Below are positions 9,345 through 23,431 of a stretch of 49,307 nucleotides of DNA, piece after piece (position 1 is the first letter of the stretch; the number at the start of each line of letters is the position of its first letter). Source of the DNA: an uncultured Clostridia bacterium (GTDB taxonomy: Bacteria; Bacillota; Clostridia; Christensenellales; Borkfalkiaceae); the NCBI GenBank assembly GCA_964615285.1, contig CAZTND010000004.1:1233-50539 (forward strand), given 5' to 3'. The position numbers and the translations under genes were made by a program. Below the pieces are notes generated by a model. The model ran no database searches, was not told the DNA's origin, and saw only the letters and a program-made list of their open reading frames with translations.

Positions 9345-10574
9345 ATGGAAAAACAGATCAAGAAAGTGGTTTTGGCTTATTCGGGCGGGTTGGATACTTC
9401 CATCATTATCCCCTGGCTGAAAGAGAACTACAACGGCTGCGAAGTCATCGCCGTTTCGGCGGACGTCGGGCAGGGCACCGAATTGGACGGGCTGGAAGAA
9501 AAGGCCAAAAAGACGGGCGCCTCCAAACTGTACATTCTCGACCTCAAAAAGGAATTCATCGAGGACTATATCTATCCCACCATGCAGGCGGGCGCCAAGT
9601 ACGAGGATAAATATCTGCTCGGCACGTCGTTCGCCCGTCCCGTCATCGCCAAGCGCATCGTTGAGATCGCCAAGAAAGAGGGCGCCGACGCCATCTGCCA
9701 CGGCTGCACGGGCAAGGGCAACGATCAGGTGCGGTTCGAGCTGACCATCAAGGCGTTCGCGCCCGAAATGACCATCATCGCGCCCTGGCGCATCTGGAAC
9801 ATCAAGAGTCGCGACGAGGAGATCGACTACGCTGAGGCGCACAATATCCCCCTGAAGATCAGCCGGGAGACCAACTATTCCAAGGATAAGAATCTGTGGC
9901 ATCTCTCCCACGAGGGCCTCGACCTCGAGGACCCCGCCAACGAGCCGCAGTACGAAAAGCCCGGCTTCCTCGAAATGGGCGTGTCGCCCCTGCAGGCGCC
10001 AGACAAGCCCACCTACGTCACCATTCACTTTGAAAAGGGTATCCCCACGGCGATCGACGGCAAGGAGATGGGCGCGGTCGAACTCATGGAAAAACTCAAC
10101 AAGCTCGGCGGCGAAAACGGCGTGGGCTTGGTCGACATGGTCGAAAACCGTCTGGTCGGCATGAAGAGCCGCGGCGTGTACGAGACCCCCGGCGGTTCCA
10201 TCCTGTACGCGGCGCACGAGAATCTCGAAATGATCTGCCTCGACAAGGCGACCGCGCACTATAAGCAGCTTGTCGCCGTCAAGTTCGGCGAGATCGTCTA
10301 TGACGGGCAGTGGTTCACCCCCCTCAGGGAAGCCCTGCAGGCGTTCGTCGAAAAGACGCAGGAAACGGTCACGGGCGACGCCAGGGTCAAACTCTATAAG
10401 GGCAACATCATCAACGCGGGCGTCACTTCGCCGCACTCCCTGTACAGCGAGAACATCGCCACCTTTGAGGACGACGGCGGCGCATACAGCCAGAAGGACG
10501 CCGAAGGGTTCATCAACTGCTTCGGTCTGCCCATCAAAGTCAAGGCGATGCTCGAAGCGCGCAAACTGAAATAA
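9345..10574 (+). CDS. argG: argininosuccinate synthase
   Basis: 409 aa. Contains AYSGGLDTS, the ATP pyrophosphatase motif, and is ArgG-like over its full length. Confidence 0.95.
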
Positions 10575-10580
10575 AATTTT

Positions 10581-11507
10581 ATGTATAACGTATTCATAGA
10601 CGGCAAGGAGGGCACGACGGGGCTGCAAATCTTTGACCGCCTGGGCAAAAGACAGGACGTGCGCGTCATCGCGCTGCCCGAAGAAAAGCGAAAGGACGTC
10701 GCCGCCCGCAAAGAAGCGATCAACGGCGCGGACGTCGTATTCCTGTGCCTGCCCGACGTGGCGGCGAAGGAATCGGTCTCCCTCGTCGAGAGCGACAAGG
10801 TCAGGGTCATCGACGCCTCCACGGCGCACCGCACGGCGGCGGGCTGGGCATACGGCTTCCCCGAACTTTCGGCGGAACACCGAAGGGCGATCGCCTCCTC
10901 CCGTTTCATCGCCAATCCCGGCTGTTATGCGAGCGGGTTCATCGCCCTCGTCTATCCCCTGGTAAAGCGGGGGATCGCGGCGGCGGGTTATCCCTTCGTC
11001 TGCCACGCCGTCAGCGGCTATTCGGGCGCCGGCAAGAAGGGCATCGCGCAGTACGAAGGGGCGGACAGGGACGTCTCCCTCGAAACGCCCCGCCTATACG
11101 GCCTGACGCTCTCGCACAAGCACCTGCCCGAAATGGTCGCGCAGTGCGCTTTGACGCGCAAACCGGTGTTCAACCCGTACATTTGCGACTATTACAGCGG
11201 CATGTCGGTCACCGTTCCGCTCTTTGCGGGACTTTTGGAAAAGCGGGTGACGCCCGCGGACGTCAAGGAACTCTTTTCGGAACACTATGCGGGCGCAAAG
11301 TTCGTGAAGGTGGGGGAAGAGCCGAGCGGCTACATCGCCGCCAACCCCTTCGACGGGACCAATCAGATGGAGATCCTCGTCAACGGCAACGACGAACAGA
11401 TATTGCTCACGGCGCGGTTCGACAATCTCGGCAAGGGCGCTTCCGGCGCGGCGGTGCAGAACATGAACATCGCCCTCGGGCTGGACGAAAGCACGGGGCT
11501 CTTATAA
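10581..11507 (+). CDS. argC: N-acetyl-gamma-glutamyl-phosphate reductase (short type-2 form)
   Basis: 308 aa. Contains GKEGTTGLQI and the active-site region NPGCYASG. Arg operon context. Confidence 0.9.
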   Translation: MYNVFIDGKEGTTGLQIFDRLGKRQDVRVIALPEEKRKDVAARKEAINGADVVFLCLPDVAAKESVSLVESDKVRVIDASTAHRTAAGWAYGFPELSAEHRRAIASSRFIANPGCYASGFIALVYPLVKRGIAAAGYPFVCHAVSGYSGAGKKGIAQYEGADRDVSLETPRLYGLTLSHKHLPEMVAQCALTRKPVFNPYICDYYSGMSVTVPLFAGLLEKRVTPADVKELFSEHYAGAKFVKVGEEPSGYIAANPFDGTNQMEILVNGNDEQILLTARFDNLGKGASGAAVQNMNIALGLDESTGLL

Positions 11508-11544
11508 GCTCTTATAATAAGGCGCGTAAAATAAGGCGCGTAAA
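11499..11544. repeat. two adjacent tandem micro-duplications at the argC 3' end
   Basis: CTCTTATAAG/CTCTTATAAT (10 bp x2, spanning the TAA stop) is followed by ATAAGGCGCGTAAA x2 (14 bp, exact). Confidence 0.85.
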
Positions 11545-11610
11545 CGTATTTTCCGCTCCGCGGAAGGACATTTTTCAATTACGATCGAACGAAGGCAAGG
11601 AAAGGCAAAC

Positions 11611-12828
11611 ATGACCATGAAACAGATCGAAGGCGGCGTCTGCGCGGCAAAGGGATTCCGCGCAAGCGGCGTGCACTGCGGCATACGCAAGAACAAGACC
11701 AAAAAAGATTTGGCGCTCATCGTGAGCGACGTGCGCGCCGCCACGGCGTGCGTCTATACCAAAAACCTCGTCAAGGGCGCGCCCATCCTCGTCACGCAGA
11801 AGAACGTGGCGGACGGCTATGCGCAGGCGGTCATCGTCAACAGCGGCAACGCCAACACCTGCAACGCGAACGGCGTGGAGATCGCCGAGGGAATGGCAAA
11901 ACTCGTCGAGGAATATACGGGCATCCCGTCGGGCGACGTGGTCGTCGCCTCCACGGGGGTCATCGGGCAGAAGTTGTCTTTGGAACCCATCCAAAGCGGT
12001 ATGCCCGCCCTCAAAGCGGAGCTCGGCGATCACTCCCGCGACGCGGCGGAGGCCATCATGACGACGGATACCGTCCCCAAGGAGATCGCCTATGCCTTCG
12101 AACTCGGCGGCAAGGAGTGCCATATCGGCGCCATCTGCAAGGGCGTCGGCATGATCTGCCCCAATATGGCGACCATGCTCATGTTCGTCTGCACGGACGC
12201 GGCCATCTCTCCCGCCATGCTGCAAAGGGCGCTCGACCTCGACGTGAAGGACTCCCTCAACATGGTCAGCGTGGACAGAGACACGTCCACCAACGACACC
12301 CTCTGCCTGATGGCGAACGGCCTGGCGGGCAACGCCCGCGTGGAAGAGGACGGCGCGGACTTCCGCAAGTTCCGCAAAGTACTGCACGCGGTCACGACGT
12401 ATATGTGTCGTCAGATCGCGGGGGACGGCGAAGGGGCGACCAAGCTCATCGAATGCCGCGTGACGGGCGCGAAGAGCAAAAAGAGCGCCAAACTCGCGGC
12501 GAAAGCTGTCGTGTGCAGCGACCTTCTGAAGGCGGCGATGTTCGGCGCGGACGCCAACTGGGGGCGCGTTTTGTGCGCCGTCGGCTATTCGGGCGCGGAC
12601 GTCGACCCCGACAAGATCGGCGTTTCCTTCCGTTCCAAGGCGGGGGAGATCGAGGTCTGCCGCGGCGGCAAAGGGGTGGACTTCTCCGAGGAAGAGGCAA
12701 AAAAGATCCTCTCGGAGGACGAGATCGACATTCTCATCGATCTCGGCGAGGGGAATTACAAGGCGACCGCCTGGGGCTGCGACCTCACTTACGATTACGT
12801 CAGGATCAACGGCGATTACCGCACCTGA
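11611..12828 (+). CDS. argJ: bifunctional ornithine acetyltransferase / N-acetylglutamate synthase
   Basis: 405 aa. ArgJ-like, including the autoprocessing site region (ATMLMFV) and the C-terminal INGDYRT. Confidence 0.95.
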   Translation: MTMKQIEGGVCAAKGFRASGVHCGIRKNKTKKDLALIVSDVRAATACVYTKNLVKGAPILVTQKNVADGYAQAVIVNSGNANTCNANGVEIAEGMAKLVEEYTGIPSGDVVVASTGVIGQKLSLEPIQSGMPALKAELGDHSRDAAEAIMTTDTVPKEIAYAFELGGKECHIGAICKGVGMICPNMATMLMFVCTDAAISPAMLQRALDLDVKDSLNMVSVDRDTSTNDTLCLMANGLAGNARVEEDGADFRKFRKVLHAVTTYMCRQIAGDGEGATKLIECRVTGAKSKKSAKLAAKAVVCSDLLKAAMFGADANWGRVLCAVGYSGADVDPDKIGVSFRSKAGEIEVCRGGKGVDFSEEEAKKILSEDEIDILIDLGEGNYKATAWGCDLTYDYVRINGDYRT

Positions 12829-12855
12829 GCGGGAGACAGTACGGATAAAAAAATT

Positions 12856-13728
12856 ATGACCAAACAAGATATGATCACCAAGGAGCAACAGGCAGAGTTC
12901 CTCATCGAGGCGATGCCCTACATCAAAAAATACCAGGACAAGATCCTGGTCATCAAATACGGCGGCAACGCCATGCTCAACGACGAGCTGAAAAATTCGG
13001 TCATGCGCGACCTCACCATGCTGCGCATGGTCGGCATCAACGTCGTACTCGTCCACGGCGGCGGGCCCGAGATCAACGCCCTTCTGAAAAAGGTCGGCAA
13101 GGAGAGCAAGTTCATCGACGGACTGCGCTACACCGACGAAGAGACCGTGGAATACGTGGAAATGGCGCTCGCGGGCAAGGTGAACAAATCGCTCGTCAAC
13201 CTGCTGCAACAGAACGATGCCAAGGCCATCGGGCTGTGCGGCATCGACGGGCACATGCTCCTCTGCGAAAAGCAGGATGAAAAGCTGGGTTTTGTCGGCA
13301 AGGTCGTCAAGGTCAATCCGGGCATCATTCTCGACTGTCTGGAAGCGGGCTACATTCCCGTCATCTCCACCGTCGGGTACGGCAAGGACGGGGAGATATA
13401 CAACGTCAACGCCGATACGGCGGCGTCCGTCATCGCGGGCGCGCTGGGCGCGGAGAGCCTCATTCTCATGACGGACATCAAGGGGCTTTTGGAGAACAAG
13501 GACGACGAAAACACCCTCATCAAAAAGGTATATGTTTCGGACATTCCCTCGCTCGTCAAGCAGGGGATCATTTCGGGCGGTATGGTCCCGAAAATAGAAT
13601 GCTGCAAAGAGGCCATCCGCCGCGGCGTGAACCGTGTGTTCATCACCGACGGCAGGATCAACCATTCCATTTTGCTGGAATTGCTGTCCGATTCCGGTAT
13701 GGGCACCATGTTTGTAAACGAAGACTGA
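12856..13728 (+). CDS. argB: acetylglutamate kinase
   Basis: 290 aa. Contains VIKYGGNAM, VHGGGP and NVNAD motifs. Confidence 0.95.
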   Translation: MTKQDMITKEQQAEFLIEAMPYIKKYQDKILVIKYGGNAMLNDELKNSVMRDLTMLRMVGINVVLVHGGGPEINALLKKVGKESKFIDGLRYTDEETVEYVEMALAGKVNKSLVNLLQQNDAKAIGLCGIDGHMLLCEKQDEKLGFVGKVVKVNPGIILDCLEAGYIPVISTVGYGKDGEIYNVNADTAASVIAGALGAESLILMTDIKGLLENKDDENTLIKKVYVSDIPSLVKQGIISGGMVPKIECCKEAIRRGVNRVFITDGRINHSILLELLSDSGMGTMFVNED

Positions 13729-13754
13729 TATTTTACCATATCAGTCCTTTTTCT
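13723..13754 (+). terminator. AT-rich hairpin plus T-run after argB (weak internal terminator or processing site)
   Basis: GACTGATAT-tttacc-ATATCAGTC followed by CTTTTTCT. The argB TGA lies inside the 5' arm. Confidence 0.35.
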
Positions 13755-13795
13755 AATATAAACGAAATCAAAGTATTAAGGATCACGGATAGAAA

Positions 13796-14961
13796 ATGGA
13801 TTTTGAGACGATCAAATATAAGGACAAAGAATACATCGAACCGACATACGCGCGCTTTCAGGTGGGCATCGCCTACGGCAAGGGCGCCACGCTGACCGAC
13901 TTTTCGGGAAAGGAATACATTGACTTCACGAGCGGCATCGGCGTGAACATCTTCGGCATAAACGACGAAGTGTGGAAAGAGGCGGTCACCGCGCAGCTGA
14001 ACAAAGTGCAGCACGCCTGCAACCTCTACTACACCCGGCCGCAGACCGAACTTGCCGAACTCCTCTGCCAAAAGAGCGGCGCCAAAAAGGTCTGCTTCTC
14101 CAACAGCGGCGCCGAGGCGAACGAGTGCGCCATCAAGGCGGCAAGGAAGTACAACGCCGACAAATACGGCGAGGGCAAGCGCTATGAAATACTCGTGTTG
14201 AACGGCAGTTTCCACGGCAGGACGCTCGCCGCGCTCTCGGCCACGGCGCAGCCCGCCTTCCGCAAATATTTTTCGCCCTTCCTCGAAGGGTTCCCGTCCT
14301 TCGACCCGGACTATGACAGTTTCCTCTCCGCCGTCACGGATAAGACGGGGGCGGTGATGATGGAGCTCGTGCAGGGCGAAAGCGGCGTCAACCTTCTCGA
14401 TTTCGATTTCGTGCGCAAGGTGGAAGAGTACTGCAAGGCACACGACATCCTGTTCATCGTCGACGAAGTGCAGACGGGCAACGGCAGGACGGGCAGGATG
14501 TACTCCTATCAGCAGTTCGGCGTGCAGCCCGACCTCGTCACCACGGCGAAGGGGTTGGGCGGGGGGTTGCCCATCGGCGCCTGCCTGTTCTTTGACAAGA
14601 CGGAATACGTCTTTCACTACGGCGACCACGGTTCGACGTTCGGCGGCAACCCCGTGTGCTGCGCGGGCGGCGCGGCCATCGTAAAGCGGCTGGACGACGA
14701 GTTGTTCGGCGAAGTCACCCGCAAGGGCTGGCATCTCTACACCGAACTGAACAAACTTTCCAAGGTGTCCAAGGTCTCGGGGATGGGGCTGATGATCGGC
14801 GTCAGGACGGACAAACCCGCCCGCGCCGTCGCCGAGCGCTGCATCGAAAGGGGGCTGTTCGTCCTGACGGCGCACGACAAAGTAAGGCTGCTGCCCCCCC
14901 TCAACATCACGAAAGAAGAACTGGAAAAAGGTTTGAAAATATTGAGTGAGGTCATCGAAGA

Positions 14962-14965
<4 letters not shown>
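13796..14965 (+). CDS. argD: acetylornithine aminotransferase
   Basis: 389 aa class-III aminotransferase. Contains DEVQTG..RTG and the PLP-lysine region TTAKGLGGG. Confidence 0.9.
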
Positions 14966-15873
<908 letters not shown>

Positions 15874-15895
15874 AAACAAGGCGGGAACATATACA

Positions 15896-16972
15896 ATGAG
15901 CGAAGAAAGAGTATACGTTACTTTACAGAACGGCAAGGTTTTCAAGGGCTACCGTTTCGGCGCAAAGGGGGACAAGATCGGCGAACTCGTCTTTACGACG
16001 GGCATGACGGGCTACATCGAAACGCTCACCGATCCCAGCTATTACGGGCAGATCGTCGTGCAGACCTTCCCCCTCATCGGCAATTACGGCATCATCTCCG
16101 AGGATTTTGAAAGCCGCAAGTCCTTCGTGTTCGGCTACATCGTGCGCGAAAAGTGCGACGAGCCCTCCAATTTCCGCTGTGAAGAGACGCTGGACGCCTT
16201 TTTGAAGGCAAAGGGCATCGTGGGGGTCTACGGCATCGACACGCGCGAACTCACCAAGATCGTGCGCGAGGCGGGCGTCATGAACGCCGCCATCACCTCC
16301 AAGCCCTTCAAGGATTTTGAAAAACTGACGGCGTACCGCGTGACGGACGCCGTGAAGAGTACCACGGTCCCCGTGCCCGAAGTGCAGAACGAGGGGGGCA
16401 AATATAAAGTCGTGCTCTACGATTTCGGCGCCAAGGAGAACATCGAGCGCGAACTCGTCAAGCGGGATTGCATGGTCATCCGCGTGCCCTCCCGGTATAC
16501 GGCGGAGGAGGCGCTCGCCCTCGATCCCGACGGCATCATGCTCACCAACGGGCCGGGCGACCCCGAAGAGAATACGGAAGTCATCGAAAATCTGAAAAAG
16601 CTTGCAGGCAAAAAGCCCATCTTTGGCATCTGCCTGGGGCACCAGCTTTTTGCGCTCGCCATGGGCGGCAGGACCAAGAAGATGAAGTACGGGCACCGCG
16701 GTTCCAACCAGCCCGTGCGCGACACAGCGACGGGGCGGGTATACATCTCCTCGCAGAACCACGGGTACGAGGTCATCTCGGACAGCGTCAAAGGGCGGGT
16801 GAGTTTCGTCAACGCCAACGACGGCACCTGCGAAGGGGTCGATTACGACGACATCGGCGCCTACACCGTGCAGTTCCACCCCGAAGCCTGCGGCGGCCCG
16901 CACGACGCCAATTTCCTGTTCGACAAGTTCATAGCCGATATGCAGAAGCAGAAGGAGAAAAGGAATGCCTAA
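15896..16972 (+). CDS. carA: carbamoyl-phosphate synthase small (glutaminase) subunit
   Basis: 358 aa. Contains the GICLGHQ catalytic Cys motif and the HGYE/QFHPE region. Confidence 0.95.
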   Translation: MSEERVYVTLQNGKVFKGYRFGAKGDKIGELVFTTGMTGYIETLTDPSYYGQIVVQTFPLIGNYGIISEDFESRKSFVFGYIVREKCDEPSNFRCEETLDAFLKAKGIVGVYGIDTRELTKIVREAGVMNAAITSKPFKDFEKLTAYRVTDAVKSTTVPVPEVQNEGGKYKVVLYDFGAKENIERELVKRDCMVIRVPSRYTAEEALALDPDGIMLTNGPGDPEENTEVIENLKKLAGKKPIFGICLGHQLFALAMGGRTKKMKYGHRGSNQPVRDTATGRVYISSQNHGYEVISDSVKGRVSFVNANDGTCEGVDYDDIGAYTVQFHPEACGGPHDANFLFDKFIADMQKQKEKRNA

Positions 16973-19900
16973 GAGAAGTGATATTAAAAAAGTATTGGTC
17001 ATCGGGTCGGGGCCCATCGTCATCGGTCAGGCCGCCGAATTCGACTATGCGGGCGCGCAGGCGTGCCGCGTCTTGAAGAGCGAGGGCATCAACGTCGTTC
17101 TCTGCAACTCCAACCCCGCCACCATCATGACGGACAGCGCGCTCGCCGACGAGATATACCTCGAACCGCTCACCGAGGAGACCTTAAAGCGCATCATCAT
17201 CAAGGAAAGACCGGACTCTCTCCTCGCCTCCCTCGGGGGACAGACGGGGCTGACCATGGGCTGCAAGCTGGCGAAATCGGGCTTCCTCGCCGAGCATGGC
17301 GTCAAACTCATCGGCACCAGGCTCGACGCCATCGACAGGAGTGAGGACAGGGAACTCTTCAAGGAGACCATGGAGAAGATCCGTCAGCCCGTCGTGCCTT
17401 CGGACATCGCCTACACGGTGGACGAGTGCGTGGCGGTCGCAAATAAGCTCGGCTATCCCGTCATCGTCCGTCCTGCCTACACGCTCGGCGGCGCGGGCGG
17501 CGGCGTGGCGCACGACGAGGAGGAGCTCCGGCTCATCTCCCACAACGGGCTCATGCTCTCGCCCATCACGCAGGTGCTCATCGAAAAGTACATCGGCGGC
17601 TGGAAGGAGATAGAGTTCGAAGTGCTGCGCGACGGCGCGGGCAACGTGCTCACCGTCTGCTCCATGGAGAACTTCGACCCCGTCGGCATCCACACGGGGG
17701 ATTCCATCGTCATCGCGCCCGCCGTCACGCTGGCGGACAAGGAATATCAGATGCTCCGCTCGGCGTCCCTCGCCATCATCACCGAATTGGGGATAGAGGG
17801 GGGGTGCAACTGCCAGTTCGCGCTCAATCCCGACAGCTTCGAGTATTCGGTCATCGAGGTCAATCCCCGCGTTTCCCGCTCCTCGGCGCTCGCCTCCAAG
17901 GCGACGGGCTATCCCATCGCCAAGGTGGCAACCAAGATCGCCCTCGGCTACAACCTCGACGAGATCAAAAACGACGTCACGGGCAAGACGTACGCCTGCT
18001 TCGAGCCGGCGCTCGACTATGTCGTCGTCAAACTGCCCAAGTGGCCCTTCGATAAATTCCTGTACGCCAGGCGCGAGCTGGGCACGCGCATGAAGGCGAC
18101 GGGGGAGGTCATGGCGATCGGCTCGACCTTCGAGCAGGCGATCATGAAGGCGGTGCGCGGCGCGGAAATTTCCATGACGACACTGAACCACAAGAAATTC
18201 ATGCCGCTGCCCACCGAGGAGATCGTGCAAAAGCTCCATGAAAAGACGGACGAACGGCTGTTTGTGGTGTACGAGGCCATCAAACGCGGCGTGTCGCTCG
18301 ACGAGATCTTCGACATCACCAAGATCGACCGCTGGTTCCTCTCCAAACTGCGCAACCTCGCCCGCTACGAGTACAAACTCAAAACGGTCCGCGAATACGC
18401 CGAAAACCTGTCCGAAGAGGAGATGGACGACCCCGATCTCTCCGTGCTCATCGACGGGGAGGAATATCCCGTCAAAGACATCAGAAGGGGCGTGCTGTCG
18501 CGCAGGCTCTACGAAGAGGGCAAGCGGTACAGCTACCTGGACAAGGACATAGAGGCGCTTTCCGGGCAGAAAATACCCTATCATAAAAGGGCGGCGTTCA
18601 AAATGGTCGACACCTGCGCGGCGGAATTCTCGGCGCAGACGCCCTATTTCTATTCGACCTACGACGAGGACGACGAGGCGAAGCCCTTCGTGGCAAAGAG
18701 CCGCAAAAAGCGGGTCATCGTCATCGGGTCGGGACCCATCCGCATCGGGCAGGGCATCGAGTTCGACTATTCTTCCGTGCACTGCGTCTGGACGCTGAAA
18801 GAGCTCGGGTACGAGGTCATCATCATCAACAACAACCCCGAAACGGTCTCCACCGACTTCGACACGGCGGACAGGCTGTACTTTGAGCCGCTGACGGCGG
18901 AGGACGTGCAGCACGTCATCGACGTGGAAAAGCCGTACGGCGTCATCATCACCTTCGGCGGGCAGACGGCCATCAACCTCTGCGCCTACTTCCAGAGCCA
19001 CGGCATCCGTATCCTCGGCACGCCCGCGGACAGCGTGGACATCGCCGAGGACAGGGAACGCTTCGACGTACTGCTGGAAAAATACGGCATTCCCCGCCCG
19101 AAGGGCATCACGGTCATGACCAAGGAAGAGGCGTTCCGCGCGGCGGACGAACTGGAATATCCCATTCTCCTGCGCCCGTCCTACGTCATCGGCGGGCAGA
19201 ACATGACCATCGCCTTCACGCCCGACGACGTCAACCGCTATATGGACGTCATTCTCGCCCAGGGCATCGAGAACCCCGTCCTGTGCGACAAATACCTCAT
19301 GGGCAGCGAGCTGGAAGTGGACGCCATCTGCGACGGCACGGACGTGCTCATCCCCGGCATCATGCAGCACATCGAGCGCACGGGCGTGCATTCGGGCGAC
19401 TCCATCGCCGTCTACCCGCCCTACAATCTCGACGACGCCATGCTCAGACAGATCATCGAAGTTTCCACGCAGCTGGCGCTGGAACTGAAGACCAAGGGGC
19501 TCATCAACATTCAGTACCTCATCTACCGCAACCGCCTGTACGTCATCGAGGTCAACCCCCGCGCTTCCCGCACGGTGCCGTACATCTCCAAGGTGACGGG
19601 CGTGCCCATGGTGGAGCTCTCCACCAAGATCATTGCGGGCGCCAAGCTCAAAAAACTCGGCTACGGCACGGGGCTCTATCCCGATTCTCCCTATGTGGCG
19701 GTCAAGGTGCCCGTGTTCAGTTTTGAAAAGCTCAACGACGTCAATTCCCAGCTCGGTCCGCAGATGAAGTCCACGGGCGAAGTTTTAGGGATCGGCAAGA
19801 CCATGGAGGAGGCGCTCTTCAAGGGACTCGTCTCCGCCGGATTCAAGATGTGCCACCCCACCAAAAAGAAGCCCGTCGGCGTGTACATCACGGTCAACGA

Positions 19901-21122
19901 GCAGGATAAATTCGAGATCGTCTCCGTGGCGAAGAAATTCGCCGACCTGGGCTGCAACATCTACGCCACCAAGGGCACCGCAGCGGTCATCTCCAAGCTC
20001 GGCATCCAGGTCTCGGTCGTGGACAGGCTGTCCGCCACCGACACGGTCATCAAGCTGATGGACGAGGACAAGATCGACTACATCATCTATACGGGCAAGA
20101 CGGACATGGAGTCCATCAATGACTACATCCGCCTGCACCACCACGCCATTCTGCTCGGCATCACGGTTTTGACCTCGCTCGACACGGCGAACGCCCTCGG
20201 GGACATCATCGCCAGCAAATTCACCGAGGACAATACCGAGCTGGTGGACATCAACCACCTGCGCAAGGAAAAACTGCAGCTTGAATTCACCAAGATGCAG
20301 GCGTGCGGCAACGACTATATCTACTTCAACAACTTCGACGGCAAGATCACCTGTCCCGAATCGCTCGCCATCAACTTTGTCAGCCGCCACTACGGCATCG
20401 GCGGCGACGGCATCGTGCTCATCGAAAAGTCCGACGTCGCGGACGCGAAAATGAGCATCTACAACCGCGACGGTTCGGCGGGCGGCGTCGGCGGCAACTC
20501 CATCCGCTGCGTCGGAAAATACCTCCTGGAAAAGGGCATCGCCAAGGACAAGGATGTCGTGCGCATCGAGACCGAACACGGCGTGAACGAAGTCAGGCTC
20601 TATTCCATCAACGGCAAAGTGCGTTCGGCGAGCGTCAACCTCGGCGAAGTGCGGCTCAGGGGCGCGGAAATTCCCTGCGTTTGGAAGGATGAGGAGAAGA
20701 TCGTCGGCAAGGAGATCGAGATCGGCGGGCAGAAGTACGCCGCGACCCTCGTCAACATCGGCAACCCGCACTGCGTGGTGTTCTGCGACAAGGTGGACGA
20801 CGTGGACATCGAAACGGTCGGCCCGCTCTTTGAGCACAGCGAATACTTCCCCAACCGCATCAACACCGAGTTCATCCGCGTGGTCAACCCGGTCACCATC
20901 AAGATGCGCGTCTGGGAGCGCGGCAACGGCGAAACGTGGGCTTGCGGCACGGGCGCGGCGGCGGCCGTCGTGGCATGCGTGCTGAACGGCTGTTGCCGGA
21001 GGGACACCAGCATCACGGTCAAACTGCGCGGCGGCGACCTCACCGTCAACTACAAATCGGACAACACCGTCGAGCTGATGGGGTCCGTCAAGACGACCTT
21101 TGAAGGCAAGATCGAATTTTAA
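16965..21122 (+). CDS. carB: carbamoyl-phosphate synthase large subunit fused in frame to a C-terminal DapF-like (diaminopimelate epimerase fold) domain
   Basis: 1385 aa. Residues 1 to ~1105 are a full CarB (two ATP-grasp halves and an MGS-like end). Residues ~1106-1385 (nt 20280-21119) carry FTKMQACGNDY, GNPHCV and ERGNGETWACGTG. There is no stop codon between the two parts. Confidence 0.9.
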   Translation: MPKRSDIKKVLVIGSGPIVIGQAAEFDYAGAQACRVLKSEGINVVLCNSNPATIMTDSALADEIYLEPLTEETLKRIIIKERPDSLLASLGGQTGLTMGCKLAKSGFLAEHGVKLIGTRLDAIDRSEDRELFKETMEKIRQPVVPSDIAYTVDECVAVANKLGYPVIVRPAYTLGGAGGGVAHDEEELRLISHNGLMLSPITQVLIEKYIGGWKEIEFEVLRDGAGNVLTVCSMENFDPVGIHTGDSIVIAPAVTLADKEYQMLRSASLAIITELGIEGGCNCQFALNPDSFEYSVIEVNPRVSRSSALASKATGYPIAKVATKIALGYNLDEIKNDVTGKTYACFEPALDYVVVKLPKWPFDKFLYARRELGTRMKATGEVMAIGSTFEQAIMKAVRGAEISMTTLNHKKFMPLPTEEIVQKLHEKTDERLFVVYEAIKRGVSLDEIFDITKIDRWFLSKLRNLARYEYKLKTVREYAENLSEEEMDDPDLSVLIDGEEYPVKDIRRGVLSRRLYEEGKRYSYLDKDIEALSGQKIPYHKRAAFKMVDTCAAEFSAQTPYFYSTYDEDDEAKPFVAKSRKKRVIVIGSGPIRIGQGIEFDYSSVHCVWTLKELGYEVIIINNNPETVSTDFDTADRLYFEPLTAEDVQHVIDVEKPYGVIITFGGQTAINLCAYFQSHGIRILGTPADSVDIAEDRERFDVLLEKYGIPRPKGITVMTKEEAFRAADELEYPILLRPSYVIGGQNMTIAFTPDDVNRYMDVILAQGIENPVLCDKYLMGSELEVDAICDGTDVLIPGIMQHIERTGVHSGDSIAVYPPYNLDDAMLRQIIEVSTQLALELKTKGLINIQYLIYRNRLYVIEVNPRASRTVPYISKVTGVPMVELSTKIIAGAKLKKLGYGTGLYPDSPYVAVKVPVFSFEKLNDVNSQLGPQMKSTGEVLGIGKTMEEALFKGLVSAGFKMCHPTKKKPVGVYITVNEQDKFEIVSVAKKFADLGCNIYATKGTAAVISKLGIQVSVVDRLSATDTVIKLMDEDKIDYIIYTGKTDMESINDYIRLHHHAILLGITVLTSLDTANALGDIIASKFTEDNTELVDINHLRKEKLQLEFTKMQACGNDYIYFNNFDGKITCPESLAINFVSRHYGIGGDGIVLIEKSDVADAKMSIYNRDGSAGGVGGNSIRCVGKYLLEKGIAKDKDVVRIETEHGVNEVRLYSINGKVRSASVNLGEVRLRGAEIPCVWKDEEKIVGKEIEIGGQKYAATLVNIGNPHCVVFCDKVDDVDIETVGPLFEHSEYFPNRINTEFIRVVNPVTIKMRVWERGNGETWACGTGAAAAVVACVLNGCCRRDTSITVKLRGGDLTVNYKSDNTVELMGSVKTTFEGKIEF

Positions 21123-21134
21123 GTTTTTGGTTCT

Positions 21135-22271
21135 ATGATATATTTCGATAATGCGGCGACCACCCGTCCGAACGGACGGGCGGTCAAACGCGCTATGAGC
21201 TGGATAGAGGAACGCTGGTTCAACCCTTCGGCGCTCTACCGTGAGGGGCTGGAAGTGCACGGCGACCTCAAAGAGGCGCGCGCGTTTTTCATTTCCCGCG
21301 TCGCTTCTCCCGCCGAGGCGTCCTTCGTCTTTACCGCCTGCGGCAGCGAGGCGGACAATCAGGCGCTCTTCTCCTTTGCAAAGCGGGGCAATCTCGTCAT
21401 CACGGGCGGCGAGCACGCGGCGGTCTTTGCCGCGGCGAACGAGCTGAAAAACCGCGGCGTCGAACTGCGCGTCGCGCCCCTGAACGGGGACGGCGGCGTG
21501 AACGGAGAGGCGCTCCTGTCCCTGGTGGACGAAAAGACGAGCCTCGTCTCCGTCATCCACGTCAACAACGAAACGGGCGCCGTCAACGACGTCAACGCCC
21601 TCGCGGCGGCGGTCAAAAAGAAAAACCCGCGCGTTATATTTCACAGCGACGGCGTGCAGGCGTTCGGCAAAATTCCCTACAAGATGGGGGCCGCAGTCGA
21701 TCTGTATTCGGTTTCCGCCCATAAAATCGGCGGGCTGAAGGGGGTCGGCGGGCTGTTCGTGCGCAAAAAAGCTTATGCCGCCCTGCGCCCGCACGTCTAC
21801 GGCGGCGGACAGGAGGACGGCAAGCGGAGCGGCACGGAAAACACCTTCGGCATCATGCAGTTCCGCTTTGCGGCGGAGGATAAATTCTCGGCGTTGGCGG
21901 AAGATCTTTCGCGCGTGCGCGGCTACCGCGAAACGCTTTGGGACGGGCTGGACAAAGATATTTTCACCCGCATTTCGCCCGCGGACGGCTCGCCATACAT
22001 TCTCACCGTATCGGCGGCGGGACTGCGCGGCGAAACGCTGCTGCACCTGCTGGACGATCGCGGTCTTATCGTCGGCACGGGTTCCGCCTGTTCTTCCAAT
22101 GCCAAAAAGCGGTATTCCCGCGTCATTCTCGCGTGCGGCAGGAGCGAGGCGGAGGCGGACGGCGTGCTGCGGCTGAGCTTTTCGTCCGAAACGACGCAAG
22201 AGGAGATAACGGCGGCGACGGACATTCTGAACGGCTGCGCCGCCGAACTCAAAAAAAGGATGGATCTCTGA
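21135..22271 (+). CDS. cysteine desulfurase (NifS/IscS family), thiI-associated
   Basis: 378 aa. Contains IYFDNAATT, the PLP lysine in SVSAHKIGG and the catalytic Cys in GTGSACSS. Confidence 0.9.
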   Translation: MIYFDNAATTRPNGRAVKRAMSWIEERWFNPSALYREGLEVHGDLKEARAFFISRVASPAEASFVFTACGSEADNQALFSFAKRGNLVITGGEHAAVFAAANELKNRGVELRVAPLNGDGGVNGEALLSLVDEKTSLVSVIHVNNETGAVNDVNALAAAVKKKNPRVIFHSDGVQAFGKIPYKMGAAVDLYSVSAHKIGGLKGVGGLFVRKKAYAALRPHVYGGGQEDGKRSGTENTFGIMQFRFAAEDKFSALAEDLSRVRGYRETLWDGLDKDIFTRISPADGSPYILTVSAAGLRGETLLHLLDDRGLIVGTGSACSSNAKKRYSRVILACGRSEAEADGVLRLSFSSETTQEEITAATDILNGCAAELKKRMDL

Positions 22272-23431
22272 TGGAAAACAAATCGGTCATCATCATCCGT
22301 TATGCCGAGATCTATCTCAAAAAGAAGAACCGCGGCTATTTCGAACGGATATTCAGGAACAACATAGAGTCGGCGCTCCAAGGTATTCCGCACAGACTCA
22401 CGACGGCGGCGGGGCGGTATTACCTCGAAGATTTCGCCGAAGAGGACATCGAAGAGTTGCTTTCCCGCCTGAAAAAGGTATTTGGCATCCACACAATGAG
22501 CGTGGGCAGGCGGGTCAGAAGCGACATGGACGAAATTTTCCGCGCCGCGCTCTCCGTCTGCCGCGGAAGCGGCTCCTTCAAGGTGGAAACACACCGCGCC
22601 GACAAGGCTTTTCCGCTCAATTCCATGGAAGTTTCCCGCGAGATCGGCGGCAGACTGCTCTCCGTGCGGAAAGATCTGACGGTGGACGTGCACGAGCCGG
22701 ACTTTTACGTCTATCTCGACCTGCGCGAGGACGGCACGACGCTCGTCTTTTCGGAATTTTTCGACGGTGCGGGCGGCATGCCCGTCGGTTCGGCGGGCAA
22801 GGGGCTCTTGATGCTCTCGGGCGGCATCGATTCGCCCGTGGCGGGCTATATGATGGCAAAGCGCGGCATGCACGTCCATTGCCTGCACTTCCATTCCTAT
22901 CCGTATACCAACATGCAGGCAAAGGAGAAGGTGGAGGAGCTTGCCAGGATCCTGTCGCCGTACACCTGCGGCACGCGGCTCTACTGCGTGTCCGTCACGC
23001 ACATCCAGGAGGAGATCCACCGCAAGTGCGCCGAGGAACTGATGGTCACGCTGCTGCGCCGTTTTATGTTCCGCATTGCCGAGATCGTTGCGTCGCGGCA
23101 TGGCATCCAGTGCCTCATCACGGGCGAGAGCCTCGGGCAGGTCGCCTCGCAGACCATCGAGGGCATGACCTCCTCCAATTCGGTCGTCAAAAAACTGCCC
23201 GTTCTGCGCCCGCTCGTGGGCTTCGACAAGAACGAGATCATCGAGCGTTCCCGCGCGATGGACGCCTATGACGTGTCCATTCAGCCCTTCGAGGACTGTT
23301 GCACGGTGTTTTTGCCTCGCCACCCCGCCATTCGCCCCAAATTGGACTATATCGAGGCGGAGGAGGCGAAACTCGACGTTTACGGGCTCATCGAAGAAGC
23401 GTTGAAAACGGTCGAAAAAATCGATTTTTAA
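22271..23431 (+). CDS. thiI: tRNA 4-thiouridine synthase ThiI (no rhodanese domain)
   Basis: Starts at MENKSVIIIRYAEIYLKKKN, overlapping the upstream stop (TGATG). THUMP N-terminus and the PP-loop SGGIDSPVA. Confidence 0.9.
   Translation: MENKSVIIIRYAEIYLKKKNRGYFERIFRNNIESALQGIPHRLTTAAGRYYLEDFAEEDIEELLSRLKKVFGIHTMSVGRRVRSDMDEIFRAALSVCRGSGSFKVETHRADKAFPLNSMEVSREIGGRLLSVRKDLTVDVHEPDFYVYLDLREDGTTLVFSEFFDGAGGMPVGSAGKGLLMLSGGIDSPVAGYMMAKRGMHVHCLHFHSYPYTNMQAKEKVEELARILSPYTCGTRLYCVSVTHIQEEIHRKCAEELMVTLLRRFMFRIAEIVASRHGIQCLITGESLGQVASQTIEGMTSSNSVVKKLPVLRPLVGFDKNEIIERSRAMDAYDVSIQPFEDCCTVFLPRHPAIRPKLDYIEAEEAKLDVYGLIEEALKTVEKIDF

Follow-up and report, generated by a model that had tools for sequence, protein, structure and literature searches.

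The window analysed here, a 49,307-nucleotide stretch of contig CAZTND010000004.1 from an uncultured Clostridia bacterium (Borkfalkiaceae), encodes a large subunit of carbamoyl-phosphate synthase (CPSase; CarB) that continues in frame into a complete diaminopimelate (DAP) epimerase (DapF) fold, in which the first of the two catalytic cysteines is replaced by glycine. The gene is the last one of an arginine operon. Judging from the sequences, we see about an even chance that the DapF-like part binds a ligand without catalysis, as a module on the allosteric end of this CPSase. This uncharacterised architecture, CarB ending in a pseudo-DapF domain, is real and conserved; it does not amount to a new kind of system.

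The fusion gene is listed as one uninterrupted open reading frame (ORF) of 1385 codons on the forward strand (16965..21122 of the window). Direct reading of the DNA from 20220 to 20300, across the boundary between the CarB and DapF parts, showed neither a stop codon nor a change of frame. The following parts were distinguished:

16965..20219, + strand: CarB part of the fusion ORF (residues 1-1085), with two pre-ATP-grasp/ATP-grasp units, the oligomerisation domain and the MGS-like allosteric domain
20220..20279, + strand: conserved junction, FTEDNTELVDINHLRKEKLQ (residues 1086-1105), between the CarB and DapF profile matches
20280..21122, + strand: DapF-like domain and stop codon (residues 1106-1385), a complete two-lobe DapF fold
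20490..20492, + strand: Gly1176, codon GGC, in the column of the catalytic Cys73 (Haemophilus influenzae numbering)
20943..20945, + strand: Cys1327, codon TGC, the second catalytic cysteine, in the Cys217 column

Residues 1-1085 matched the CarB equivalog NF003671 of NCBIfam with 1420 bits (cut-off 599) and TIGR01369 with 1384 bits (cut-off 1027). The DapF equivalog TIGR00652 matched residues 1107-1383 with 247 bits (cut-off 114.65), and 252 bits were obtained when the DapF-like domain was scanned alone. Pfam found CPSase_L_D1 and CPSase_L_D2 twice each, CPSase_L_D3 and MGS in the expected order, followed by two stretches of DAP_epimerase (PF01678). An earlier sequence-only reading of this DNA had described a single uninterrupted ORF that joins a complete CarB to a DapF fold, and both statements are borne out by these matches. 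Its description of the boundary as having essentially no linker was roughly right, but the two profile matches are about 20 residues apart (1086-1105), and this stretch is highly conserved. T1091, E1092, L1093 and R1100 do not vary among 63 fused sequences, and the junction motif NTELVDIN..R recurs in distant members of the fused family, P0244 among them. At the start of the DapF-like domain the initiator Met of free DapF is replaced by Leu.

Profile matches, module order and an adjacent carA all agree with a genuine CarB, and CPSase activity is predicted. Like Escherichia coli CarB (1jdb/1bxr, 1073 aa), the protein has the four CarB modules and a neighbouring carA gene; unlike it, the protein is about 300 residues longer at the C-terminus, these residues being the junction and the DapF-like domain, and it is encoded in an arginine operon instead of standing alone as carAB. 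Alignment with residues 761-1016 of E. coli CarB showed that the positions matching K954, T974, G976 and T977 are identical in the allosteric domain and that the one matching K993 is Arg. We take these five residues of the E. coli enzyme to be part of the site that binds the phosphate of nucleotide effectors.

To place the catalytic residues, residues 1106-1385 were aligned with phmmer to five solved DapFs: those of Bacillus anthracis (2otn), a cyanobacterium (9mro), Arabidopsis thaliana (3ejx), Acinetobacter baumannii (5ha4) and H. influenzae (2q9h, a C73S mutant). The match to 2otn had E=9e-65. In all five alignments Gly1176 stands opposite Cys73 and Cys1327 opposite Cys217, and the same columns were found in a MAFFT alignment of 270 sequences including 122 stand-alone DapFs. 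The Gly at the Cys73 position and the retained second cysteine, both of which the sequence-only reading had pointed out, are thus confirmed. Its further remark that GNG has become GNS does not describe a second lesion, since 81 of the 122 canonical Clostridia DapFs have GNA there.

The pocket around the missing cysteine is intact. The domain of the window keeps all residues that contact DAP (N11, N64, G74, N75, N157, N190, E208, R209, G218 and T219; for the roles of the pocket residues see PMC8225329). The residues around the distal centre of DAP, N64, N157, N190, E208 and R209, which bind its distal carboxylate and amine, are present as N1167, N1267, N1300, E1318 and R1319, and those that hold the proximal carboxylate (G74, N75, G218 and T219) are likewise intact. 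The domain therefore resembles DapF (EC 5.1.1.7; H. influenzae 1bwz/2gke, 2otn, 9mro) in its two-lobe fold, equivalog score, DAP contacts and Cys217. It differs in that Gly replaces the general base Cys73, which leaves the thiol/thiolate pair incomplete, and in that it forms the C-terminus of CarB, whereas DapF is a free protein of about 280 amino acids.

The nearest engineered counterparts are the C73S and C217S mutants of H. influenzae DapF (2q9h, 2q9j) and the Cys-to-Ser variants of Mycobacterium tuberculosis DapF and of PddB, in which one catalytic cysteine is likewise replaced in an otherwise intact pocket. Cys-to-Ser variants of racemases of the DapF family have less than 0.1% of their activity left (PMC8225329). 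In the fusion, by contrast, the replacement is Ala or Gly and is fixed clade-wide under selection. From these known effects of cysteine substitutions, little or no LL-/meso-DAP epimerase activity is to be expected. The fused protein has the DapF equivalog profile, the two-lobe fold, Cys217 and the distal-centre residues, and it lacks Cys73; missing this defining feature, it should not be annotated as a diaminopimelate epimerase.

Comparison of the alignments revealed no candidate base whose presence co-varies with the loss of Cys73, and the pocket has not gained any conserved polar residue. The sole candidate for a compensating residue was Tyr1143, a Phe-to-Tyr exchange at H. influenzae position 38. 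It was rejected, as it is also found in 22 fusions with both cysteines and many fusions without Cys73 have F, K, T or R at this position.

Homologous loci were collected by a scan of one genome per species, which returned 33 loci. About 29 of them, all from metagenome-assembled genomes (MAGs) of gut or rumen Clostridia, contain a collinear CarB-DapF-like fusion in one frame (58-96% identity), with ORFs of 1338-1385 amino acids. The MAGs include Ca. Borkfalkia, which NCBI places in Christensenellales, Ca. Gallimonas, Ca. Coproplasma, "Christensenellaceae" and Ca. Flemingiibacterium. An exact-protein look-up found no database record of the window ORF itself. The ratio of non-synonymous to synonymous substitutions (dN/dS; Nei-Gojobori, ten pairs) is 0.04-0.13 for the DapF-like part and 0.02-0.05 for the CarB part; the DapF-like part is under strong purifying selection.

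A set of 146 close fused relatives, made up of the genome loci and 120 metagenomic proteins, was compared with the 122 stand-alone DapFs. The Cys/Cys pair is present in none of the 146 fused sequences and in all 122 stand-alone proteins. Gly in the Cys73 column, for which a search among relatives had also been suggested, recurs in the clade of the window (clade A):

Stand-alone DapFs (122 sequences): Cys in the Cys73 column, Cys in the Cys217 column, pocket intact
Clade A, with the window (126 sequences): Ala (98) or Gly (28) at 73, Cys at 217; N64, N75, N157, N190, E208, R209, G218 and T219 kept
Clade B, Coproplasma-like (15 sequences): Ala at 73, Cys at 217; G74 to A, N190 to Y/F, R209 to K
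Clade C, loci L031 and L032 (2 sequences): Cys at 73, Ser at 217; N157 to E, E208 to S, R209 to K
P0008, P0045 and P0047 (3 sequences): Cys73 and Cys217 both lost, pocket intact

In 69 non-redundant clade-A sequences with 41-80% identity the pocket residues are at least 96% conserved, while merely 25% of all columns reach 95%. Clade C (L031:6950-10993, L032:6950-10993), which is 58% identical overall, has the reverse lesion; carA adjoins the fusion here, and arg genes do not flank it. A further variation concerns Asn11 of the GNDY motif (window residue 1116, nt 20310-20312): the column is Asn in 122 of 122 stand-alone DapFs and Asp (GDDY) in 28 of the 126 clade-A sequences, always together with Ala at position 73.

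The wider family was explored by an exhaustive search of 1.84 billion cluster representatives, followed by a search with the C-terminus of P0244. Distant CarB-DapF fusions with both cysteines do exist; P0244 itself is full-length (1349 aa) and 59% identical to the window protein. The second search gave 119 fused proteins, few of which have source names; those named are labelled as Oscillospiraceae, Ruminococcaceae, Clostridiales or "Treponema" MAGs. In this sister subfamily both cysteines are present in 82 of the 119 proteins, and one or both are missing in the other 37, the replacements being G, S, A, F or N for Cys73 and S or A for Cys217. Fitch parsimony on a rough neighbour-joining tree counted at least 11 changes of state of the cysteine pair, and the clade of the window in this tree (144 sequences) uniformly lacks Cys73. 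These changes are most simply explained by repeated loss. Together with the 37 sister proteins they indicate that catalysis has repeatedly been dispensable in the fused context.

Judged by its distribution, the fusion is old and widespread; most simply, it began with a catalytically competent DapF, and catalysis was then abandoned several times in domains that persisted. The number of origins of the fusion is less clear: a small tree suggests a single origin, and the larger neighbour-joining tree nests stand-alone Oscillospiraceae DapFs beside one fused group. The conserved junction is an insecure argument for a single origin, as it may be the natural C-terminal tail of CarB. None of the 240 fused matches listed in the protein searches exceeds about 600 amino acids, and the word-based candidate step seems to favour short fragments; these lengths do not reflect gene structure, since ORFs of 1340-1385 amino acids are common in the genome loci and P0244, a cluster representative, is full-length.

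The sequence-only reading had allowed that the fusion might already be widespread and characterised as a normal bifunctional enzyme. It is indeed widespread, and many sister members carry both cysteines, but literature searches found neither a characterisation of a CarB-DapF fusion nor a report of a DapF pseudoenzyme. Public databases label the fused proteins "diaminopimelate epimerase, partial" (NCBI) or "carbamoyl-phosphate synthase large subunit" (JGI). Three long proteins from the searches, P0289 (692 aa), P0290 (687 aa) and P0367 (742 aa), also end in a DapF domain with both cysteines. The 400-450 N-terminal residues of P0290 and P0367 have no Pfam match and P0289 has a partial CPSase_L_D2 only; they may be other DapF fusions or contain degraded CarB parts.

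The ORF is a real, old and widely conserved head-to-tail union of a complete CarB with a complete DapF, and would be expressed as the end gene of argGCJBDF-carA-carB::dapF*. In the reading that we prefer, the DapF module of the wider family started with both catalytic cysteines. In the lineage of the window, Christensenellales-like gut Clostridia, the general base Cys73 has been exchanged for Ala or Gly, so that the two-base epimerisation of LL- and meso-DAP presumably cannot run. The module, which is maintained by strong purifying selection, would bind DAP or a close analogue without converting it. Because Cys73 is lost and yet purifying selection is strong and the pocket intact, a non-catalytic binder of DAP or an analogue appears to be the most likely role of the module. 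One of the two possibilities offered by the sequence-only reading was that the module at the allosteric end had been repurposed for one-base chemistry or ligand binding; as far as sequences can tell, this fits all the evidence, with activity and ligand being predictions.

CPSase is a textbook allosteric enzyme, and its regulation in bacteria is thought to reside in the MGS-like domain of about 140 residues. Placed directly after this domain, the module could modulate CPSase activity or the oligomeric state, adding regulation or stability to the enzyme. Eukaryotic CAD/Ura2 proteins show that other domains can be fused behind the allosteric domain at the C-terminus of CPSase. The domains fused in CAD are active enzymes of the same pathway (dihydroorotase and aspartate transcarbamoylase), whereas the module described here stems from the lysine/peptidoglycan pathway and is without a catalytic residue. 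E. coli DapF shows that the fold can modulate another enzyme through protein-protein contact: it binds RppH, stabilises the RNA-binding conformation of that enzyme and thereby stimulates it (6d13; PMC6061791). In that case DapF is a separate and catalytically active protein, and the partner is RppH and not CPSase.

Residues 932-1385 were modelled with AlphaFold2 from an alignment of 63 sequences. The MGS-like and DapF-like domains are both well defined (mean predicted local distance difference test score, pLDDT, 88.3), and the predicted template modelling score (pTM) is 0.65; confidence is lower at the junction, around residues 1086-1100 (pLDDT 62-74). A Foldseek comparison with the PDB returned DapF structures first, with target-normalised template modelling (TM) scores of 0.84-0.91 (2otn, 9mro, 3ejx). 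The top score of 0.91 belongs to 9mro_A, a cyanobacterial DapF in the ligand-bound closed form with aziDAP. Further matches were O-ureidoserine racemase, PhzF and relatives of proline racemase and hydroxyproline dehydratase (6r76, 4k7g).

Several points weigh against a ligand-binding module. The ligand, the loss of catalysis and the effect on CPSase are all things that we infer. With a pTM of 0.65 and a junction of low confidence, the AlphaFold2 model defines no interface with the allosteric domain. Conservation of the pocket may reflect folding, and the 100% conservation of R209 and C217 in clade A is circular, because these residues helped to define the clade. Pocket residues were lost in clade B (N190 to Y/F, R209 to K) and in clade C (N157 to E, E208 to S, R209 to K), which is easier to reconcile with a purely structural role than with DAP sensing. 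Finally, the fused domain might still supply meso-DAP if the genomes have neither a separate dapF nor a bypass by Ddh.

A more specific version of the preferred reading, which we put forward tentatively, is that the module acts as a DAP sensor: it would bind LL- or meso-DAP, a precursor of both cell wall and lysine, unconverted and, by being joined to the CPSase allosteric domain, tune carbamoyl-phosphate/arginine synthesis to the state of the DAP pool. Arginine/pyrimidine metabolism would thereby be linked to lysine/peptidoglycan metabolism. Cultured Christensenella species have LL-DAP in their cell wall (PMC7937921); if the organism resembles Christensenella, one may speculate that LL-DAP is a major pool and a plausible signal.

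The best surviving alternative, though a doubtful one, is that the module serves structure or oligomerisation only: the DapF fold would help CarB to fold or stabilise the CPSase dimer or tetramer, and a small-molecule ligand would not be involved. Dimerisation is obligatory for some DapFs, and the allosteric domains contribute to the tetramerisation of E. coli CPSase. The conserved junction agrees with such a role, as does the finding that either cysteine, and in clades B and C also pocket residues, could be lost under continued purifying selection. A scaffold, however, needs none of the DAP-binding residues, which in the clade of the window are conserved far above the average column at 41-80% identity, and the absence of a confident interface in the AlphaFold2 model counts against this explanation as well.

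That the protein is a bifunctional CarB-DapF and still the epimerase of the cell appears unlikely. One cysteine and a water molecule or another group in the cavity left by Gly or Ala would have to sustain a reaction that is slow but sufficient for lysine. The DapF equivalog score well over its cut-off and the conservation of Cys217 and of the entire DAP pocket would agree with this, and the sister fusions with both cysteines could be true bifunctional enzymes. Moreover, tblastn detected no further DapF-like sequence across the 49-kb window and no separate dapF in the 10 kb flanking about 35 related loci, and a small flux of meso-DAP would be enough if the organism is similar to the cultured Christensenella with LL-DAP walls (PMC7937921). 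On the other hand, Ala or Gly should be worse than the Ser of the nearly inactive family variants mentioned above (PMC8225329). Some close relatives have lost both cysteines, position 73 varies between A, G, S, F and N, a compensating residue does not co-vary with the loss of Cys73, and R209 together with N190 or N157 is gone in clades B and C.

Still less probable is a new one-base enzyme, in which Cys217 alone would catalyse another reaction on a DAP-like substrate, such as a beta-elimination, dehydration or isomerisation. Homologues of proline racemase became hydroxyproline dehydratases after the loss of one cysteine, and one-cysteine relatives with new chemistry are among the structural matches (the 3-hydroxyproline dehydratases 6r76 and 4k7g, and PhzF). 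The strict conservation of one cysteine and of the binding pocket in the clade of the window would suit an enzyme of this kind. Like the fusion, trans-3-hydroxy-L-proline dehydratase (6r76/4k7g) belongs to the same fold superfamily and has one of the two catalytic cysteines replaced; unlike the fusion, which has gained no new functional residue, it has Thr in place of Cys and a documented new reaction. The absence of a new conserved polar residue from the pocket argues against a one-base enzyme, as do the clades, which differ in the cysteine they keep or keep none, and the arginine operon, which suggests no such substrate.

An artefact or recent accident, be it an assembly or sequencing error or the stop-loss read-through into a decaying dapF that the sequence-only reading had considered, was a possibility a priori and is now scarcely credible: the in-frame junction and the non-Cys residue recur in about 29 independent species-level MAGs, which excludes a sequencing or assembly error, and in more than 140 metagenomic proteins, the nonsense codons and frameshifts of related assemblies lie in the carB part and not at the junction, and decay is refuted by the dN/dS of 0.04-0.13 and by conservation down to 41% identity with intact binding residues.

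A whole order-level group of abundant gut Clostridia carries on its CPSase an extra domain of 280 residues that originates from another pathway, has lost a catalytic residue and is under selection. If the module senses DAP, it would represent a new regulatory link between peptidoglycan/lysine and arginine synthesis and an epimerase recruited as a ligand-sensing pseudoenzyme domain; if its role is structural, it would still be a clean natural example of an enzyme that became a pseudoenzyme domain after fusion. The family forms a natural series from catalytic to non-catalytic, in which sister lineages preserve the catalytic state. Metabolic reconstructions of MAGs with the fusion may wrongly credit them with DapF activity because of automatic annotation. 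The fusion would surprise a specialist for CPSase or DapF, and its proposed role is directly testable.

The fusion is the final gene of a same-strand run (9345-21122) in which the order is argG, argC, argJ, argB, argD, argF, carA and carB::dapF-like. The genes upstream of it were assigned by Pfam:

9345-10574, + strand: argG
10581-11507, + strand: argC
11611-12828, + strand: argJ
12856-13728, + strand: argB
13796-14965, + strand: argD
14962-15873, + strand: argF
15896..16972, + strand: carA, the small (glutamine amidotransferase) subunit of CPSase, with CPSase_sm_chain and GATase domains; it overlaps the start of the fusion by 8 nt

Downstream, at 21135-23431, follow a class-V aminotransferase of the cysteine-desulfurase type and thiI. 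The order of arg operon, carA, fusion, nifS-like gene and thiI is kept in most related loci, and the aminotransferase and thiI lie directly 3′ of the fusion in almost all loci of clades A and B (L002-L028 positions). In L002, L003 and L037 this pair is separated from the fusion gene by an ORF of about 200 amino acids, which DUF6106 matches weakly or faintly. An Rfam scan of the window gave zero matches at gathering thresholds.

In several relatives the carB part is interrupted and the C-terminal ORF with the MGS and DapF-like domains is intact (L001:5941-5943, L002:5953-5955, L006, L024, L037:1-1010, L038:4800-5010). The interruptions are single-nucleotide nonsense changes (TAG at K914, TGA at G901, TAA at E939, TAG at S233) or frameshifts and deletions; the ones in L006 and L024 correspond to residues 233 and 939 of the window protein. 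Of these loci, L006 and L024 alone were returned by the unbiased genome scan, as 2 of about 31, whereas the others were picked for being truncated, and the apparent clustering of interruptions near residues 900-940 is an ascertainment effect of picking truncated matches. The interrupted copies could be real pseudogenes, strain variants or assembly errors. Recoding or programmed read-through was rejected, as in-frame TAG, TGA and TAA occur at differing conserved sense positions and other copies have frameshifts, deletions or long-read indel errors.

Two further loci differ from that of the window. L030, a stand-alone DapF from the genome scan, belongs to an Oscillospiraceae-type group, which is different from the group of the window. 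L040 (L040:6057-11254) contains a Cys/Cys-type CarB-DapF fusion beside a purine operon (purE, C, F, M, N, H, D, L) and not beside an arginine operon; on this 256-kb long-read contig carA, carB, purM and purD are all fragmented, as is typical of uncorrected indel errors.

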